From Trueperaceae bacterium (lineage in GTDB: Bacteria; Deinococcota; Deinococci; Deinococcales; Trueperaceae), in assembly GCA_034520945.1 (NCBI GenBank), contig JAXHNB010000001.1:96001-160000 (forward strand): a stretch of 64,000 nt of DNA, written 5' to 3'. The notes below the pieces were generated by a model that worked only from the letters and a program-made list of their open reading frames with translations, did not search any database and had not been told where the DNA came from. Made by a program: the position numbers and the translations under genes. Positions 6,406 to 20,963 of the stretch are shown here, one piece after another (the stretch's first letter is position 1; each line of letters begins with the position of its first letter).

Positions 6406-8085
6406 ATGAACGCCTGGATCGTTCGGATCCCCGTCGCCCTGTTCGCCGCGCTGCTGGCGGTGGCGGCGGCGTTTCCCGCCACGCCCGTTCCGGTGCTGGG
6501 GCTGTCCGCGCTGTTGTTCGCGGCCGCCACCGCGCGGGCGTTCGGGCTGGGGGTGGCGTTGCTGGCGCTGCCGGTGGCCGCCACGGTGGTGGCCCGCCCC
6601 TGGAACGAAGCCGGCGGCGCGCTGAGTGTCGAACCGATGTTCCTCGCCGCCCTACCGGCGTTCGCGCTGGCCGGCCTCTGGATCGGCCGATTGGAGCGCC
6701 ACCTGGGCGCGCAACGCCAGGTGAGCAAACAGGCGCAGTTCGACCCCCTCACCGGCCTGCTGAACCGCACCGCCTTCGAGCGCATCGCGGGCGAGGCGAT
6801 GCTGGAGGCCCGCGAGCGCAACGGCATGGTCGCGATGTTGTTCATCGACCTGGACCGCTTCAAGGTCGTCAACGACACCTACGGGCACGAACTCGGCGAC
6901 GCCGTCCTGCGGCGCGTTGCCGACCTCCTCCGCGAGCACGTGCGGCAGGCCGACCTGGTCGGCCGCCTCGGCGGCGACGAGTTCACCGTCGCGCTCCGCA
7001 ACCTGCGCGAACCCGACAGCGCCGCCTCCGTCGCCCGCAAGCTGCTGAAGTTGCTCAACGAACCCCAGGAGGTCGCCGGCCGCCGCATCGAGGTCGGCGC
7101 CAGCATCGGCATCGCCATGTACCCCCGCGACGGCCAGGACGTCACCGAGCTGCTCAAGAACGCCGATCACGCCATGTACCAGATCAAGGACCGCGGCCGC
7201 AACGGCATCAGCTTCTCCAGCCACGAGACGCAGATCCGCAACGACCGCCGCATCGAGGTCGAGCGGCAACTGCGCGGCGCCCTCCACGAGGACGAGTTCG
7301 AGCTGCACTACCAACCCAAGGTCGACTTCCGCAGCGGCGGCCTGGCCGGCGTGGAGATGCTGCTCCGCTGGCGCAACCGTGACCTGGGCCTGGTGTCGCC
7401 TGATGAGTTCATCCCCATGGCGGAAGAGACCGGCATGATCCTGCCGCTGGGCCGCTGGCTGCTGCGCCAGGCCTGCTTCCAGCTGCGCGACTGGGACGAG
7501 GCCGGCCTGCCCCCCATCACCCTCGCCGTGAACGTCTCTACCCTGCAGTTCCGCCAACCCGACTTCGTCCACGCCGTCGAGGAGGCACTCCGCGACTCCG
7601 GGATCGCCCCCGCCCGCCTGGAGCTCGAGATCACCGAGTCCGTCCTGATGAAGGAATACGCCGCCTCCCTGCGCCAGCTCGAACGTCTCGCCGCCCTCGG
7701 CGTCGGCATCGCCCTGGACGACTTCGGCACCGGCTACTCCTCCCTCGCCTACCTGCAGAACCTGCCCATCCGCACCCTCAAGATCGACCGCTCGTTCGTG
7801 TCCGGCCTGACCCTGCGCGGCGGCGGCGAACCGGGCGGCACCGCCCCCATTGTCGAGACCATCCTCACCCTCGGCCAAAAACTCGGCAAGGAGATCGTTG
7901 CCGAAGGGGTCGAGACCCGCGGCCAGGCCCGCTGGCTGGCGCAATCCGGCTGCACCTACGGGCAGGGCTTCCTGTACGCCCGCCCGCAACCCGCCAGCCG
8001 CATCGCCAAGCTGCTGGAGCGGGCCGTGCCGGCGCCGACGCGCGCGGACGTGCGGGGGGAGCGGTTGTTGATGTCGGGGGCGTGA
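6406..8085 (+). CDS. Membrane-anchored GGDEF-EAL (diguanylate cyclase/phosphodiesterase) protein, copy 1
   Basis: N-terminal TMs; DPLTGLLNR, DLDRFK, GGDEF; EML, ELEITES, DDFGTGYSSL, EGVE. Confidence 0.93.
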   Translation: MNAWIVRIPVALFAALLAVAAAFPATPVPVLGLSALLFAAATARAFGLGVALLALPVAATVVARPWNEAGGALSVEPMFLAALPAFALAGLWIGRLERHLGAQRQVSKQAQFDPLTGLLNRTAFERIAGEAMLEARERNGMVAMLFIDLDRFKVVNDTYGHELGDAVLRRVADLLREHVRQADLVGRLGGDEFTVALRNLREPDSAASVARKLLKLLNEPQEVAGRRIEVGASIGIAMYPRDGQDVTELLKNADHAMYQIKDRGRNGISFSSHETQIRNDRRIEVERQLRGALHEDEFELHYQPKVDFRSGGLAGVEMLLRWRNRDLGLVSPDEFIPMAEETGMILPLGRWLLRQACFQLRDWDEAGLPPITLAVNVSTLQFRQPDFVHAVEEALRDSGIAPARLELEITESVLMKEYAASLRQLERLAALGVGIALDDFGTGYSSLAYLQNLPIRTLKIDRSFVSGLTLRGGGEPGGTAPIVETILTLGQKLGKEIVAEGVETRGQARWLAQSGCTYGQGFLYARPQPASRIAKLLERAVPAPTRADVRGERLLMSGA

Positions 8086-15546: not shown

Positions 15547-15654
15547 CCCCGCGACCGCGAATTGGGCCCGCCCGCACGCGTGCTGGACTCGCCGCCAACG
15601 CCGCCGCGGCGGGGCCTTCGTCGGCCCCGAGCCCGCCCGGCCCAGGAGGTACGC

Positions 15655-16972
15655 ATGAGCGCGATGGAGACCCGCAGCCGCATGGCGGAGCTACGCGAAC
15701 GCCAGAAGCAGGCACTGTTCCCGATCCAGTCGAAGATGCTGCTCTACGGCGAGAAGCCCCTTGCCGTCGACCGCGCCGAGGGATCGACCGTGTGGGACGT
15801 CGAGGGCAACGAGTACCTCGACTTCTTCGGAGGCATCCTCATGGTGAGCGTGGGGCACGCCAACCCCGAGGTCGTCGAGGCCACGCATCAGCAACTCCAA
15901 CGCGTCCAGCACACCAGCGCGCTGTTCATCAACGAGAAGACCATCGAGGCCGCCGAGCGCATCGCGGAGGTCACGCCCGGGCGGCTGCGCAGCTGCTTCT
16001 TCACCAACTCCGGCAGCGAGGCCGATGAGACGGCCGTGATGGTCGCCCGCATGTACACCGGCAACACGGACGTGATCGCGCTGCGCCACGCCTACTCGGG
16101 ACGCACGGGCACCGCGATGAGCCTCACCGCGCAGAGCAATTGGCGCCTGGGCGGCGTCTTCGACGGCTCCATCAAGCACGTCCGCAACCCGTACCACTAC
16201 CGCGCGCCCCTTGATCTGGACGAGGACGAGTTCCTGGAGCTGTGCGCCCAGGACCTCGAGGAGACGATCGCGACCTGCACCAACGGCCGTATCGCCGCGT
16301 TCATGGCGGAGCCGATCCAGGGCGTGGGCGGCTTCGTGGTGGCGCCCCAGAAGTACTTCAAGCGCATCGAGCCGATCGTCAAGGACGCCGGCGGCCTTAT
16401 GATCATCGACGAGGTGCAGACCGGCTGGGGCCGGACCGGCACCCACTGGTGCGGCATCGAGCACTGGGGCATCGAGCCGGACGTGATGACCTTCGCGAAG
16501 GGCATCGCCAACGGCTTCCCCGTCGGTTGCACCATCACCACGCCCGAGGTCGCCGCTGCCGTCGACGGGCCCTCGCTGTCGACCTTCGGTGGCAACCCCG
16601 TGGCGATGGCCGCGACGCTGGCGACGCTCGACGTGATCGAGAAGAACGACCTGCCCGGCAACGCCGCCCGGCAGGGCGCGCGCCTCCGCGAGCGGCTCGA
16701 CGGCTTGCAGGCGCGCTACCCGTTCATCGGGGAGGTGCGCAGCATGGGCCTCATGCAGGGGCTGGAGCTCGTCGTGCCGGACAGCAGCAAGACGCCCGCA
16801 TCCCGCGCGCACGCAGGCGCTCACCGTCGCCGCGCGCAAGCACGGCCTGATCATCGGAAAGGGCGGGCTGTACGGCAACGTCATCCGCATGGCGCCGATG
16901 CTCAACAGCGACGCCGACGAGATCGACCGCGGCGTGGGCCTGCTGGAGGCGGCCCTCGGCGACGTGGCGTGA
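15655..16972 (+). CDS. Class III aminotransferase, copy 2, with a +1 frameshift near 16799
   Basis: SD AGGAGG; close paralog of 5000-6370. Removing one C at CCCGCATCCC restores KTPDPART...KGGLYGNVIRMAPMLN up to TGA 16970-16972. Confidence 0.85.
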
Positions 16973-17075
16973 TCCCCGCGCGTCCTCCTCGCGACGGGCG
17001 CGCTGGATACCGTACCCGACGCACGCGTCAGGATTCTGTGACGAACGCGTAAGTACGCCGTTGCGCGCCCTTCCG

Positions 17076-17090
17076 TAGGCTCCGACCATG
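17076..17090 (+). promoter_or_regulatory. Probable leaderless promoter -10 (TAGGCT) and original ATG (17088-17090) of GGDEF-EAL copy 2
   Basis: TAGGCT-CCGACC-ATG mirrors TAGCGT-ACAGCC-ATG of the paralog. Confidence 0.6.
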
Positions 17091-17982
17091 GTGCGTCGTG
17101 ACGAAGCTACGTTGTCTTCCCGGTTGGGGAGTGCGCTTGCTTCTTGCTGCACGTCTCTTGCGGGTGTGAGTCCCGTCCCGGTAGGTGTCGGAGCGCCGGG
17201 TAGCAGGCCCCAGGTGTTTGGGGGAGACCCCTTCGCCCGAGCGGGGTGTCGAAAGCCTGTGAGGCGACTTCGGTCGTTGAGTGGGGAGCAAGCGCGCGGG
17301 CCGCAACATGAAGTGAATCCTGCAGCCTCGTTAGAGTCACAATCCGGAAGCCGAGCCGCTCATGTCACGGTGAAGGCCACGTCTGGCACGCTTGTTCCGA
17401 AGCGCGTGTTGGGTTCCGGCGGGGTACGGGGAGCAGCACGCGTGCATAGAGGGGTGTGGAACTCGAGAGGCCCGTCTCGGTTGCCGTTGCCGCGGCAAGG
17501 CGTTTCGTATAAGTCAAGGACGAAGTCGAGCGCTGCCGAGCGGGAGTCCGAGGGGACCGTAGTACTGTTGTCTGCCTTGTGTGGGTGGGCGCGATGGTCG
17601 TGTGGCAGAACGCGGCTGGAGGGAAGGGTCCCTGCGGTGGTTGGTGTCGTTGATGTGGGTAAGCGCGAGGGCATGGCCGGCTGGACCGGTTCTAACTACC
17701 CCCTGGGGCTCTGGTCTCATGGTGAAAGCGCGAGATCTGCGGAGGCGACTGTGGGTTGGGGCCAACTGGCCGTTCCAGGCGTGCGTTCATGCTGTTGTGC
17801 CAACTTCTTGGGGTGGCGCCCTGGGGAGGGTGTGAAGGCGTGTTTCTGGGCGGGTTGGGTAAAGCCTCGACTTGAGCGGCCACCGGAAAGCCGTGTGCGG
17901 GAAATCCGCACGCACGGTTTGAACGGGGGTCTTGACTACCATGCCCGCCGTAAGGCGCGGAAGGAGTAAGGATCTACCAATG
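17091..17982 (+). ncRNA. Group II intron lacking an intact RT ORF, inserted immediately after a start codon
   Basis: 5' GTGCG at 17091; domain V AAAGCCGTGTGCGGGAAATCCGCACGCACGGTTT (17887-17920, AGC triad); domain VI with bulged A17976; domain III AGTA/GAA motif; J2/3 CGA 17549-17551; decayed IEP N-terminus at 17673-17800. Confidence 0.9.
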
Positions 17983-19247
17983 GCCGCGTGGACCCGAATG
18001 CTCCTGACGCTCCTGGTGTGGGCGATCCTCGTGGTCGTGGCGGTGAGCGGCTGGCTGGACGCCGCCGCCGTGGCCGCACTGGCCCTGCCGGCCGCGTTCG
18101 TGGCCGGCAGGACGTTTCGCTGAACGGGTGGGATCGTCGGCGCCGTGGTCGCCTGGGCCCTGCTGCGTGCCGCCCAGGTCGAGGCCGGTGGGTCCTGGGT
18201 GCCGGCTGCATTCTCCCCAGGGCTCATGGAGCCCATGGCGCTCGTCGCCATGGGGTCGGCGGCGCCTGGGTGTCGTACCTGCAGGCACAGCTCGACTCGC
18301 AGCGGATTGCCTCGGCGAAAGCCCAGTACGATCCCCTCACCGGGCTCCTCAATCGCGCCGCCTTCGAAGCCAAGGTTCACGACGCGATGTCCGAGACCTA
18401 CGAGCGCGGCTCGATCCTCGCGCTCCTGTTCGTGGACCTCGACCGCTTCAAGTTCGTCAACGACACCTATGGCCACGAGGTCGGCGACAGGCTTCTGCGG
18501 CGTGTGGCCAAGATCCTGGGCGAGCATGTCCGCGAGCACGACCTGGTCGGGCGCCTGGGCGGCGACGAGTTCACCGTCGCCGTACCCGGCTCCGCGAGGA
18601 GGATTCCGCGCGGGCGGTGGCCCGCAAACTGGTGTCCGTGCTCAACGAGCCCCACCACATCGACGGCCGGATGGTGCACGTCAGCGCCAGCATCGGCGTC
18701 TCCATCTACCCGCGTGACGGCACCACCGTCGACGCCCTGCTCAAGAACGCCGATCACGCCATGTACCTGGTCAAGGAGGGCGGCAAGAACGGCGTCTTCG
18801 TGACCACGCTCGAATCGCAGCGTGTCAACGGTCGCCGGCTGGACCTCGAGAAGCAGCTGCGCGCGGCGCTCCAGGAGGACGAGTTCGAGCTTTACTACCA
18901 ACCGAAGGTCGACCTCCGCACCGGCGCGCCCGTCGGGGTCGAGATGCTGCTGCGCTGGCGCAACCGGGAGCTGGGTCTGGTCTCGCCGGAGGAGTTCATC
19001 CCCATGGCGGAGGAGACGGGACTCATCGTGCCCCTCGGGCAGTGGTTGATGCGGCAGGCCTGCCACCAGCTGCGCGACTGGGACCGGGCCGGGCTCCCGC
19101 CCGTGGAGTTGGCGGTCAACGTGTCCACGCTGCAGTTCCGCCAACCGGACTTTGTCGCCGCCGTCGAGGGCGCGCTGGACGACAGCGGCCTGCCGCCCGA
19201 CCGGTTGGAGATCGAGGTCACCGAGAGCGTGTTGATGCGCGAGCTAG
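17980..19247 (+). pseudogene. GGDEF-EAL protein copy 2: in-frame TGA at 18121, frameshifts near 18255 and 18588, EAL truncated by IS1380
   Basis: MAAWTRML TMs; YDPLTGLLNR, GGDEF; EML, LEIEVTESVLMRE, then the IS begins. The DDFGTGYSS half is missing. Confidence 0.85.
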
Positions 19248-20963
19248 CCCGCTTTATTCATGAGAGGCGCTGTTGGGCGGGTTTCGGGTGGGGTTGGGCG
19301 GCGTGAGCGGGGGGTCACGCTCGTCGGTGGGCGTGTCGGGGTTTCGTTGGTGGCATTGTGGGTGGTTCGGACGTCGTGAACGAGGTTCACGAGGCCTGAA
19401 GGGCCGCGTTGGGGCGTAGGGGGCCCTTCGGCGCCAGGGGTTGGCGTCGATCGTGGGGTCGAGGTTCGTTATTGGGGCTTCGGGGGTCGTTCAGGCGGTG
19501 CTGGTGGCTTGCAGGGCTCTGGCGACGTGCCGCCATTCCTGTTGCCAGGGGGCGTCCTGGGGGAGGTGCAGGACGATGCGGCGGGCGGAGGTCTTGATCC
19601 ACGCGCCGAGCTTGATGAGGCGCTCGCGGAGGGTGCCCGCGTACGCGCGGGCCAAGCTCGTGCCGGCCGCGTGCAGCCGGAGTTCCTGGTACAAGGCGTA
19701 CGCGGCGGTGTGCAGCAGCAGGCGGGCTTGGTTGGCGAGGAACCGCGTGCAACTGAGCCGGTCTGCGGCCAGGTGCTCCTGCAGTTCTTTCAGGCGGTTC
19801 TCCATGTCGCCGCGCTTGGCGTACATGCGGCGGTAGATCACTTCCGGATCGGCGCCTACGTTGGTGATGAGGAAGCGGGGGTTGTCCCGCGCCTCCCGCC
19901 CGGGATGCTGGGTGACTTCGGACTTGTACACGACCGTTCGTTCGTGCGGCCAGCTGCGCGTCTGGTAGGGGGGCGTGCCCGTAGCGGCGTTCGCTCTGCC
20001 CGCTCGCCGCGCTGGCCTGACGGGCGTCACGCATGCGGGGTTCCGCCAGGCGTTCCAACACCGGGTTCTTGGAAATCCCGACCACGTACTCCACGCCCTC
20101 TTCCTCGAGGAACGAGAAGATCTCGGGGAGGCGAACCCGCCGTCCAACCGCACCCGCAAGCGCGCCTTGGGGAACGCACCTCGGAGGCGCGCCAGGATGC
20201 GGCGCAACAACCCCGTCGCGCCCAGGGCGGGTGGCGCGTTGCCCTTCCGCAGGAGGCTCGTCAAGACGTACTGATCCCGTTCTTGCTCGAACTGCATGGA
20301 GGCAACCAACGGCAAGTAGCAGTGCTCCCCGTAAAACCCGTTGAACAACGCGCCCTGCTGCGCCCCGTGCGTGGGGTCGTCCGTGCCGTCCACATCGACC
20401 GTGATGCGTTTCGCCCGGCCCCGACGGTGGGCCCGGTGCCGTTCGATCACACCCTCGGCGAGGGCGACGCCCATCTCGAACACCTCCCGGCGCGTCACGC
20501 CGTTCTCGAACCGTGACAGCGTCGGTTGCGACGCGAGATCTGCTCCCCGTTCGGGGTCCCGGTCGACCACCAGCTTGTGCATGGGGTCGTGCCGCAACCT
20601 TGCGGCGTCGTTGCCGTCCTCGTACCCGCAGGCGATCCCGACCACCCGCTGGCGAAGCACGTCCCCAAACGAGTGCTGCACGCGCTCCGGGTCCCGCCGG
20701 TCCCTCAACACCGACGCCATCGCGGTCGTCAAGCCCAGCCGGTCGTCCGCGCCGCGAAGCAACACCGCCCCACCATCGCTGGTGCCGAGCGGCTGATCGA
20801 ACATCGCCACCAACGGCTTCGTGAACCACCCCTCGAACAACACAGGCTGTTGCGTGCTATCCTCGCGCATTAGAAGGCCTCCAACGTGTAGGAAGTTCGT
20901 GCCTCACACCCTTTCTACCACGTTCGAGGCCTTCACGTTTCCAACCCTCACGAATAATTCAGG
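19248..20963 (-). mobile_element. IS1380-family insertion sequence (1716 bp) flanked by CTAG on both sides
   Basis: Imperfect terminal IRs CCCGCTTTATTCATGAG / CCTGAATTATTCGTGAG (13 of 17 match); CTAG at 19244-19247 and 20964-20967. Confidence 0.88.
19491..20870 (-). CDS. IS1380-family DDE transposase with two compensating frameshifts (~20127 and ~19970)
   Basis: TSDGG, GYEDGNDA..LRHDP, LASQPTLSRFEN, DVDGTDDPTHGAQQ, RLDGGF, YAKRGDMENRLKE. The intervening segment PEIFSFLEEEGVEYVVG is in another frame. Confidence 0.88.
   Translation of the reverse strand: MREDSTQQPVLFEGWFTKPLVAMFDQPLGTSDGGAVLLRGADDRLGLTTAMASVLRDRRDPERVQHSFGDVLRQRVVGIACGYEDGNDAARLRHDPMHKLVVDRDPERGADLASQPTLSRFENGVTRREVFEMGVALAEGVIERHRAHRRGRAKRITVDVDGTDDPTHGAQQGALFNGFYGEHCYLPLVASMQFEQERDQYVLTSLLRKGNAPPALGATGLLRRILARLRGAFPKARLRVRLDGGFASPRSSRSSRKRAWSTWSGFPRTRCWNAWRNPACVTPVRPARRAGRANAATGTPPYQTRSWPHERTVVYKSEVTQHPGREARDNPRFLITNVGADPEVIYRRMYAKRGDMENRLKELQEHLAADRLSCTRFLANQARLLLHTAAYALYQELRLHAAGTSLARAYAGTLRERLIKLGAWIKTSARRIVLHLPQDAPWQQEWRHVARALQATSTA

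Follow-up and report, generated by a model that had tools for sequence, protein, structure and literature searches.

The window analysed here is a 64,000-nucleotide (nt) stretch of a Trueperaceae genome (contig JAXHNB010000001.1, positions 96,001 to 160,000), and its forward strand carries a group II intron of 892 nt, devoid of an intact open reading frame (ORF) for a protein of its own, at 17091-17982. We read this ORF-less intron, with a probability of roughly 0.8, as a non-autonomous copy, deleted for its reverse transcriptase (RT), of a lineage that inserts at start codons, ends in AUG and encodes an RT lacking an endonuclease (En) region. Comparison of relatives shows a widespread lineage that inserts in the sense orientation right after an (A/G)TG located 6-8 nt downstream of TANNNT, recognises its 5' exon by four base pairs only, between CAUN of exon-binding site 1 (EBS1) and exon NAUG, and ends ...A-CC-AAUG, with a terminal G that matches a C at the gamma position in the junction between domains II and III (J2/3). 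Because the intron stands after a start codon and ends in an AUG of its own, insertion duplicates the start codon, and exact excision would leave a single ATG. In the mechanism we propose, the host promoter would transcribe the intron from a three-base 5' exon, and splicing would regenerate the original leaderless mRNA.

The element, GUGCG...CUACCAAUG, was identified by Rfam matches, and its ends were set by conservation in relatives. At the 5' side, GTGCG (17091-17095) follows ATG (17088-17090) without a gap and agrees with the group II 5' end GUGYG; the 3' side reads ...GGAGTAAGGATCTACCAATG, with ACCAATG at 17976-17982 and 17982 as its last base, and is followed by GCC GCG TGG. The 5' exon ATG, which would be the original leaderless-type start codon, makes up intron-binding site 1 (IBS1, CAUG) together with C17087, and a spacer of 6 nt (CCGACC) separates it from TAGGCT (17076-17081), a -10-type box (TANNNT) of the host promoter. 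The intron-terminal AUG (17980-17982) is in frame with the host ORF, and its G17982 is gamma'. The usual group II ending, an adenine followed by a pyrimidine (AY), is absent: the conserved end is ...CCAAUG and gamma is altered to C, a state in which the consensus is broken and the fold is kept.

Both junctions lie in contigs of two runs from one sample (X1 and X2; 16519-17197 and 17894-18744, the latter reaching 18766 in X2) with 0 differences. The junction G is therefore not a consensus error, a concern that had been raised in the initial annotation of this DNA; the two runs may be the window assembly's own source sample and do not count as independent support. The box, ATG, GTGCG, ACCAATG, AAGGA, CAUG loop and C-G-A on which that annotation had built its case are all in place. 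An intron-free paralog at 6406 has the same geometry (TAGCGT, ACAGCC, ATG AAC GCC TGG), and an intron-free homolog from the same genus reads TAGGCT, 7 nt, ATG. An exact empty site was sought, and the same-genus homolog, being only 76% identical, is not one; a search with the 3' flank of one relative (L031) in 61 genomes of another genus returned no ortholog.

Target site and terminal AUG in relatives

Relatives were retrieved with P0001, the 437-residue (aa) RT/maturase of the second intron copy in this genome, at 80 loci on genome contigs and 80 loci on metagenome contigs. All were found via intact RT genes, so the sample is biased to successful copies. Labelled hosts are Actinomycetota, Myxococcota, Planctomycetota, Acidobacteriota, Gemmatimonadota and others. 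Intron 5' ends were placed by homology, with the flank left unused: a hidden Markov model, which picks up one clade only, served for that clade, and a regular expression combined with the J2/3 anchor served for the other. On genome contigs 64 of 81 sources were placed, the remainder running off the contig or being outgroups, and the metagenome replicate yielded 43 of 80 loci, with 1 ambiguous. The 64 genome-contig introns begin with GTGCG (34), TTGCG (28) or GTGTG (2). Full-length relatives measure ~1.9-2.0 kb, including a 1.3-kb RT gene.

At genome loci with at least 3 nt of exon (n=60), the exon ends in ATG in 53, GTG in 6 and ACG in 1, which makes a start codon in 59/60; the metagenome loci give ATG in 36 and GTG in 6 (42/42). 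Insertion is thus in or beside an initiation codon in both sets, as the initial annotation had surmised when it described an element that homes to such codons. A TANNNT box lies 6, 7 or 8 nt upstream in 33, 14 and 5 genome junctions, respectively, or 52 of the 53 for which 20 nt or more of flank are available, and the sole exception, L048, has GAAGAT instead. The corresponding figure for metagenome junctions is 31/38, and two of the seven misses show a 9-nt spacer by eye. As a background value, the same geometry is found at 191 of the 22,661 other ATG/GTG triplets in these loci (0.84%). Only 9 of 90 exon start codons are preceded by a Shine-Dalgarno (SD)-like 4-mer. In Mycobacterium tuberculosis, TANNNT is centred 7-12 bp upstream at 73% of primary start sites, with no -35 motif, according to the consulted part of PMC3898074. 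The geometry at the intron targets matches that of leaderless promoters, so transcripts would begin at the start codon. The earlier proposal that the intron rebuilds an SD must accordingly be given up: the genes that are hit have leaderless-type promoters and lacked an SD to begin with, and the motif is confined to a sub-clade.

The intron 3' end reads CTACCAATG in 53/61 genome loci (L006 was mis-parsed and reads CTACCAATG too) and in 45/54 metagenome loci; the variants are TTACCAATG, CTACCTATG, CTACTAATG, CTACCAGTG and CTACCCATG. Conservation stops at the terminal G, beyond which the sequence is unrelated between loci, and the base that follows the terminal ATG is G in 22, A in 17, C in 16 and T in 2. 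Where 300 nt or more of downstream sequence are available (48 genome-contig loci), the terminal-ATG frame is open for at least 100 codons in 37, and the other two frames are so in 6 and 15. Of 38 ORFs of this kind, 30 have Pfam hits, to families of many sorts; in 11 of these the match opens at profile position 1-6 and at one of the first 12 residues. A host ORF of the SRAP family begins M-C-G-R; in SRAP proteins Cys2 must directly follow the initiator Met. Judged from these sequences, the last three bases of the intron are the host start codon in most loci. Since exon and intron both end in a start codon, exact removal of GTGCG...CCAATG restores one ATG. The relatives therefore end as had been foreseen for this element, in ...CCAATG in frame with a gene.

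Some loci depart from this pattern in instructive ways. A 3'-terminal GUG (L017, L137 and L144) is found only where EBS1 CAC accompanies exon GTG, in 3/8 introns with CAC and 0/74 with CAU, a hint of a link between EBS1 and the terminal triplet, which may mimic IBS1. In L028, the 16-nt 5' flank (-10 box TAAGCT, spacer and ATG) recurs after ...CTACCA, and the host has regained a leaderless promoter behind the intron. A simple 3-bp target-site duplication was considered and rejected because 7 of 10 introns with a GTG exon end in ATG.

In the wider clade to which the window copy belongs, the captured start codon and the RT form one fused frame. Among closer relatives (66-77% RT identity to P0001), 14/15 have 0 stops in the exon-ATG frame over the first 570 nt, and the other frames have 3-9. 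The exon-ATG frame runs into the RT, for 630-680 codons in total, in 14/59 full-length loci, and a fused frame is present at 16/42 metagenome junctions. Database proteins of 641 and 679 aa start MVRRD, which is ATG plus GUGCGUCGUGA. We propose that translation of the RT in this wider clade would begin at the captured start codon and pass through domains I-III. The window copy itself has an open frame of 293 codons that runs from the exon ATG through the intron (17088-17969; a single stop, where the other frames have 11 and 12), and the encoded peptide is homologous to the N-terminal extensions of the fused RT proteins in relatives. In six relatives the frame passes domains V-VI, with its stop 9-12 nt ahead of the terminal AUG, and the window frame is of the same type: its UAA stop (17967-17969) overlaps an SD-like AAGGA (17968-17972; the two together span 17967-17972) that lies 7 nt upstream of ATG 17980-17982. 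The predicted fold pairs this AAGGA inside domain VI, in agreement with the initial annotation. In the sub-clade of the window copy, AAGGA and a stop just before the terminal AUG could permit host translation from unspliced RNA. At one locus, L012, the exon-ATG frame crosses the entire intron, RT included, into the host gene, for 965 codons without a stop.

Pairings at the intron ends and competing readings

The EBS1 hairpin of the window copy, GCCG-CTCATGTCA-CGGT (17355-17371; loop CUCAUGUCA), holds CAUG at 17361-17364, which would pair with exon CAUG at 17087-17090. The loop consensus across relatives is (C/G)UCAUNUC(A/G). The fourth base of EBS1 pairs with exon position -4 in 53/57 introns (G:C 39, U:G 8, A:U 5, U:A 1), a value reached by 0 of 20,000 shuffles, and in 40/41 introns of the metagenome replicate. 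Covariation extends to exon -3, with EBS1 CAC in 4/6 GTG-exon introns and 0/51 ATG-exon introns. EBS1 and IBS1 thus form four pairs, and covariation of the fourth with exon -4 substantiates the earlier assignment of the CAUG loop to EBS1. As exon -4 lies outside the leaderless transcript yet covaries with EBS1, recognition would take place on DNA. One genome carries the same intron (EBS1 CAUA) at two loci, L068 and L074, one matching (T at -4) and one non-matching (G at -4), which shows that the -4 pair is preferred, not obligatory.

The gamma position was located by covariation around J2/3. The RNAalifold consensus of 22 sequences has a domain II helix in which many pairs change on both sides; this helix ends before AGUC-CGA-GGGG, and CGA is read as J2/3 between the two closing pairs of domain II and the first pairs of domain III, which covary (L013, L078). 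GAGUC-C-GA occurs in 48/50 strict matches, and a looser scan adds 20 with the motif and 1 with AAGUC-C-GA; gamma is C in 56/58 metagenome matches, and all lineage members scored have C. The departures from this motif are outgroups: L077 and L079 (49% RT identity) read GAGUC-A-GA and end ...A-CUC-UAU, and outgroup L075 (55% RT identity) reads GAGUC-G-GA, ends ...A-CCC-UAC and has a normal 6-bp EBS1/IBS1 pairing. The three gamma-gamma' states, C:G, A:U and G:C, are all Watson-Crick, each with six bases following the branch A. That a J2/3 of C-G-A, with gamma C, calls for a terminal G had been argued in the initial annotation, and the outgroups, where A goes with U and G with C, bear the argument out.

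The branch point agrees with this assignment of the 3' end. A bulged A, the counterpart of the A17976 singled out beforehand in the window copy, is invariant in 55/55 distinct domain VI sequences of relatives, 6 nt before the end, and the tail is AAUG in 52. In domain VI both basal pairs are G-C (one G-U); a G-U and a G-C pair follow, the latter (pair 4) turning into A-U in 3. The consulted part of PMC4748821 gives 6 or 7 nt as the norm for the branch-to-end spacer. Together, EBS1, gamma and the branch A favour a putative intron end at G17982.

Several observations weigh against reading the element as an AUG-ending, start-codon-inserting intron. A UG 3' end breaks the AY rule, 28/64 genome-contig introns would start with U in place of the near-universal G, and the outgroups that reveal gamma covariation amount to three loci of two types only. 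With three bases, the 5' exon may be too weak to be ligated efficiently, and a leaderless transcription start at the exon ATG is something that we infer from promoter geometry alone; a scan of 16900-18200 for sigma-70 promoters and terminators, which requires a -35 box, returned 0 of each. Neither a spliced joint from 17090 to 17983 nor a lariat read is present among the matching contigs, a kind of evidence that cannot show absence, and the contig joints listed (e.g. 16966 to 18555, side 21) are weak. The sole RNA matches, contigs X20 and X21 from RNA libraries, contain intron parts only; each piece shows 3-12 differences, which assigns these contigs to relatives. The SD-like motif ahead of the intron-terminal AUG (20/54 GTGCG-type and 0/30 TTGCG-type introns) is evidently a sub-clade trait that is absent in most of the family, and in the sub-clade to which the window copy belongs the RT (437 aa; P0001 and P0002) is not fused to the exon ATG. 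Finally, in about 5 of the 48 loci with downstream sequence (L013, L031, L038, L068 and L074) the long ORF is out of the terminal-ATG frame, so that the earlier view of the terminal ATG as the host start stands for most loci and fails in these. The ORF in those loci appears to start slightly downstream; the -10 box is still present, and the ATG would be the first transcribed triplet as judged from the promoter.

Two other placements of the intron boundaries have to be weighed. Were the boundaries one base off, the intron would be G-GUGCG or G-UUGCG...CCAAU, with a canonical first G, penultimate A and terminal pyrimidine and with the same outcome in DNA. The three-base repeat makes all rotations equal at the DNA level, and G...AU ends would then be found in both clades, including the 28/64 introns that otherwise start with U. 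We nevertheless regard this shift as distinctly improbable: gamma is C, not A, in all scored members, outgroup gamma-gamma' pairs are Watson-Crick, pairing of the exon G to the C of EBS1 CAU keeps the usual register, and the branch-to-end spacer would shrink to 5 nt, against the norm quoted above from the consulted part of PMC4748821. The AY rule would also be obeyed by a 3' end at CUAC (17977) or AU (17981), since CUAC and AAU both stand just upstream of the end, and ATG or its G would then be an exon sequence shared by all targets. That such an exon sequence should recur is hard to reconcile with the retention of ...CCAATG before unrelated genes. A CUAC end would put the bulged A 1 nt from the splice site, and an AU end followed by exon ATG would shift the frame, but the ORFs are mostly in the terminal-ATG frame, with SRAP, EVE, Pkinase and others matched from profile position 1. 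Because gamma C also misfits a terminal C or U, a canonical 3' end seems to us highly improbable.

The apparent choice of promoters could be due to survivorship, in that the intron might insert after any NATG and persist only at leaderless starts, where it is transcribed and the host is unharmed. This explanation draws on the four bases read by EBS1 and on the bias of a sample found through intact RT genes, and we consider it unlikely. Neutral intergenic insertions at NATG should persist too, yet the -10 box is there in 52/53 and 31/38 junctions; the loci in which the ATG is not the gene start but stands behind a -10 box point to the promoter, not translation, as the targeted feature; and the covariation of exon -4 with EBS1 argues for recognition of DNA. 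A different matter is whether the window copy is still active. The odds lean slightly towards an inert relic that neither splices nor moves and in which the open frame and SD have no present role. Its RT is deleted, its host is frameshifted and cut by an insertion sequence (IS), and the genome's only other copy has been cut back at both ends; a search with intron DNA in 60 relatives' genomes gave a single 23-nt match and no close copies, and no spliced joint was seen in contigs. Set against this, domain V, J2/3, EBS1 and domain VI all match the family consensus, and an intact 437-aa RT/maturase is at hand in trans, with flanking RNA parts that are 91-93% identical.

If the lineage does target promoters, its landing pad might be the RNA-polymerase open complex at leaderless promoters, where EBS1 would read the single-stranded non-template strand around +1 to +3. 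Such reading would explain the strict -10 box at 6-8 nt. According to this tentative proposal, which we place somewhat on the unlikely side, the intron would take over promoter and start codon and repay the host with a terminal AUG, maybe an IBS1 mimic, and in one clade leaderless initiation at this captured AUG would yield the RT by translation across the ribozyme. Mobility through leaderless RNA followed by recombination was rejected as a route because the upstream homology would be only three bases.

The window copy and its decaying locus

Rfam models place RF02003 (group II D1, group-II-D1D4-4) at 17158-17311, the domain I segment, with 73 bits against a gathering score of 49, and RF00029 (domain V/VI) at 17886-17953 with 44.5 bits against a gathering score of 40; the scan of the whole 64 kb returned nothing beyond these two matches. 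The 5' strand of the basal domain I helix, UCGUG (17096-17100), pairs with CUCGA (17462-17466) with one U-U mismatch, as read from the alignment, and this helix is UCGUG/CACGA in one clade and UCCUG/CAGGA in others, as read by eye rather than counted by a tool. Domain II (17471-17544) has the core helix CCCGUCUCGG ... CCGAGCGGG, for which columns 112-122/184-193 of the 22-sequence RNAalifold alignment vary on both sides. J2/3 (C-G-A) follows at 17549-17551, with gamma assigned to C17549 by the motif counts in relatives. Part of domains III/IV and an RT frame remnant (ATG 17710, MVKARDLRRRLW...), taken from the ORF list, occupy 17581-17765, with 91% identity to C5:835794-835973; the first codons of the RT gene alone survive, and the remainder is deleted. 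Domain V lies at 17888-17921 by RF00029, and 17888-17919 (32 nt, a regular-expression match) equals the family consensus. Domain VI (17925-17978) is predicted to fold with bulged A17976, basal pairs G17925-C17978 and G17926-C17977 and a GUAA tetraloop at 17950-17953. The catalytic AGC, the 2-nt bulge and the bulged A of domain VI, by which domains V and VI are recognised, are all present.

The only other intron piece in the 3.47-Mb genome is at C5:835794-837315 (loci L002/L003). It is truncated at both ends, without domains I-II and without the 3' half of domain VI, and retains the intact RT/maturase P0001, in which Pfam matches RVT_1 and GIIM only and nothing past residue 395. The parts of its RNA that flank the RT gene are 91-93% identical to the window copy, for which help in trans would be possible only from this RT. 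The nearest solved RT structures all score ~1e-50 and are useless for classification. A pilT-like gene follows the C5 copy, its ATG seemingly lost to the same deletion (...GACT/G AAC TTC AGT GAA ATG), and TAGACT lies upstream; the C5 copy may represent a former insertion after the ATG of this gene. A further related intron is seen in runs X1 and X2, where a 1751-nt contig covers window positions 17343-17762 (domains II-IV), then skips to domain V, and is 8% different. At ~3-4 times the depth of the contigs that belong to the window, it shows a related and probably full-length intron to be commoner in this sample than the window copy.

Downstream of the intron stand the remains of a GGDEF/EAL gene (17980-19249, forward strand), identified by frames and Pfam as a paralog of the gene at 6406-8085. 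Its first frame stops at 18123, GGDEF is matched in 18249-18611, the end of GGDEF together with EAL continues in another frame at 18596-19249, and ~140 codons are missing from its end. As far as 18744, the frameshifts are also present in the X1 and X2 contigs (0 differences over 17894-18744). A DDE transposase gene on the reverse strand (19491-20870; Pfam DDE_Tnp_1_4) adjoins the break point in EAL. The host gene is a frameshifted, IS-truncated pseudogene. Upstream, a class III aminotransferase gene (15562-17052; 16790-16973) is frameshifted near 16790, and its true C-terminus, ...GLLEAALGDVA followed by a stop, is in the other frame. The block at 15.5-19.3 kb, with its broken aminotransferase and GGDEF/EAL genes, is a decaying duplicate of the block at about 5-8 kb, which means that the window copy has no host gene left to protect. 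With the host a pseudogene, the idea in the initial annotation that the element is translationally silent, its host being made with or without splicing, is moot for this copy. The window copy is most likely a decaying passenger in a dead GGDEF/EAL gene.

Comparison with known group II introns

Our full-text search of the literature, in which coverage of earlier key intron studies is incomplete, found no description of the habit of this lineage. A term search of a 2015 review (PMC4424553) returned neither "ATG" nor "start codon". The lineage would define a second, unrelated group II lineage specialised for start codons and offers a clear case from nature in which the AY rule for 3' ends is broken and gamma has changed to match, which explains why pipelines that look for boundaries fail on such introns. 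Its target is a functional signal, a promoter with the first transcribed ATG, and not a long sequence, and this makes site finding by En-less introns directly testable; the requirement for NATG plus a promoter could also make the intron a useful scaffold for gene targeting. Annotation is affected as well, as host start codons fall within the RNA of the intron and RT gene calls gain an N-terminal extension of 200 residues.

The other introns known at start or stop codons form a lineage of subgroup IIB1 (CL1), which includes Avi.groEL and EcKTE56.groEL and is credited to Michel et al. 2007 in the consulted part of Gomes et al. 2025 (PMC12584367). That part describes introns of proteobacteria that reside in housekeeping genes and always contain, close to where domain I begins at its 5' end, an insertion of 300-700 nt; EcKTE56.groEL is 3228 nt. 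Both lineages, as far as this partial description goes, sit at start (or stop) codons and replace the codon by an equivalent one, so that the host keeps its signal. The window family differs from that description in having no 5'-subterminal insertion in domain I, the D1 match beginning 67 nt from the 5' end, and in its full length of ~1.9-2.0 kb with a 437-aa RT in which only RVT_1 and GIIM are matched. RTs of CL1 introns carry a DNA-binding/endonuclease (D/En) region. The two also differ, by the same partial description, in their targets and hosts, the window family choosing promoter-proximal ATGs of unrelated genes in Actinomycetota, Myxococcota, Acidobacteriota, Planctomycetota and others. 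Given the missing insertion, the short En-less RT and the other hosts, the window lineage is not a member of the IIB1 start/stop-codon lineage, from which the published description of the latter sets it apart, and the kinship with the Azotobacter groEL intron suggested in the initial annotation falls away.

Class C (IIC) introns, as described in the consulted parts of PMC12584367 and PMC4028801, resemble the window lineage in their En-less RT, very short EBS1-IBS1 pairing and use of a functional genomic signal to define the site. Unlike the window lineage, which stands behind a -10 box at the start of genes and has a IIB-like domain VI with a 2-bp basal helix and a UG end, they read a DNA hairpin downstream of genes in that description. 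The IIC boundary consensus is 5' GUNYGCCNRGCAUGG and 3' CCUACYCGAU in the consulted part of PMC4028801. In place of a terminator hairpin and IIC ends, the window copy has a -10 box and ATG as its flanks and begins GUGCGUCGUGA... and ends ...CUACCAAUG.

An RT/maturase without a D/En region is also shared with the En-less varieties g1-g4 and class F of Toro and Martinez-Abarca 2013 (PMC3552965), who list many actinobacterial and myxobacterial members and some new varieties without predictable boundaries; their text makes no mention of ATG, start codons or promoters. This comparison is by description only, and the YADD of the RT argues against g2, which has FADD. In bacteria, RT genes normally lie wholly within domain IV, and in the yeast mitochondrial introns aI1 and aI2 the RT frame is continuous with the upstream exon. 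One clade of the window lineage is like aI1 and aI2 in that its reading frame stays open across domains I-III and keeps the RT in phase with the exon start codon. It differs from them in that the fused exon part is the start codon of a leaderless gene and nothing more, and in that the arrangement is found in bacteria; an RT frame read from a leaderless AUG would, if true, be a new translation route for a bacterial retroelement.

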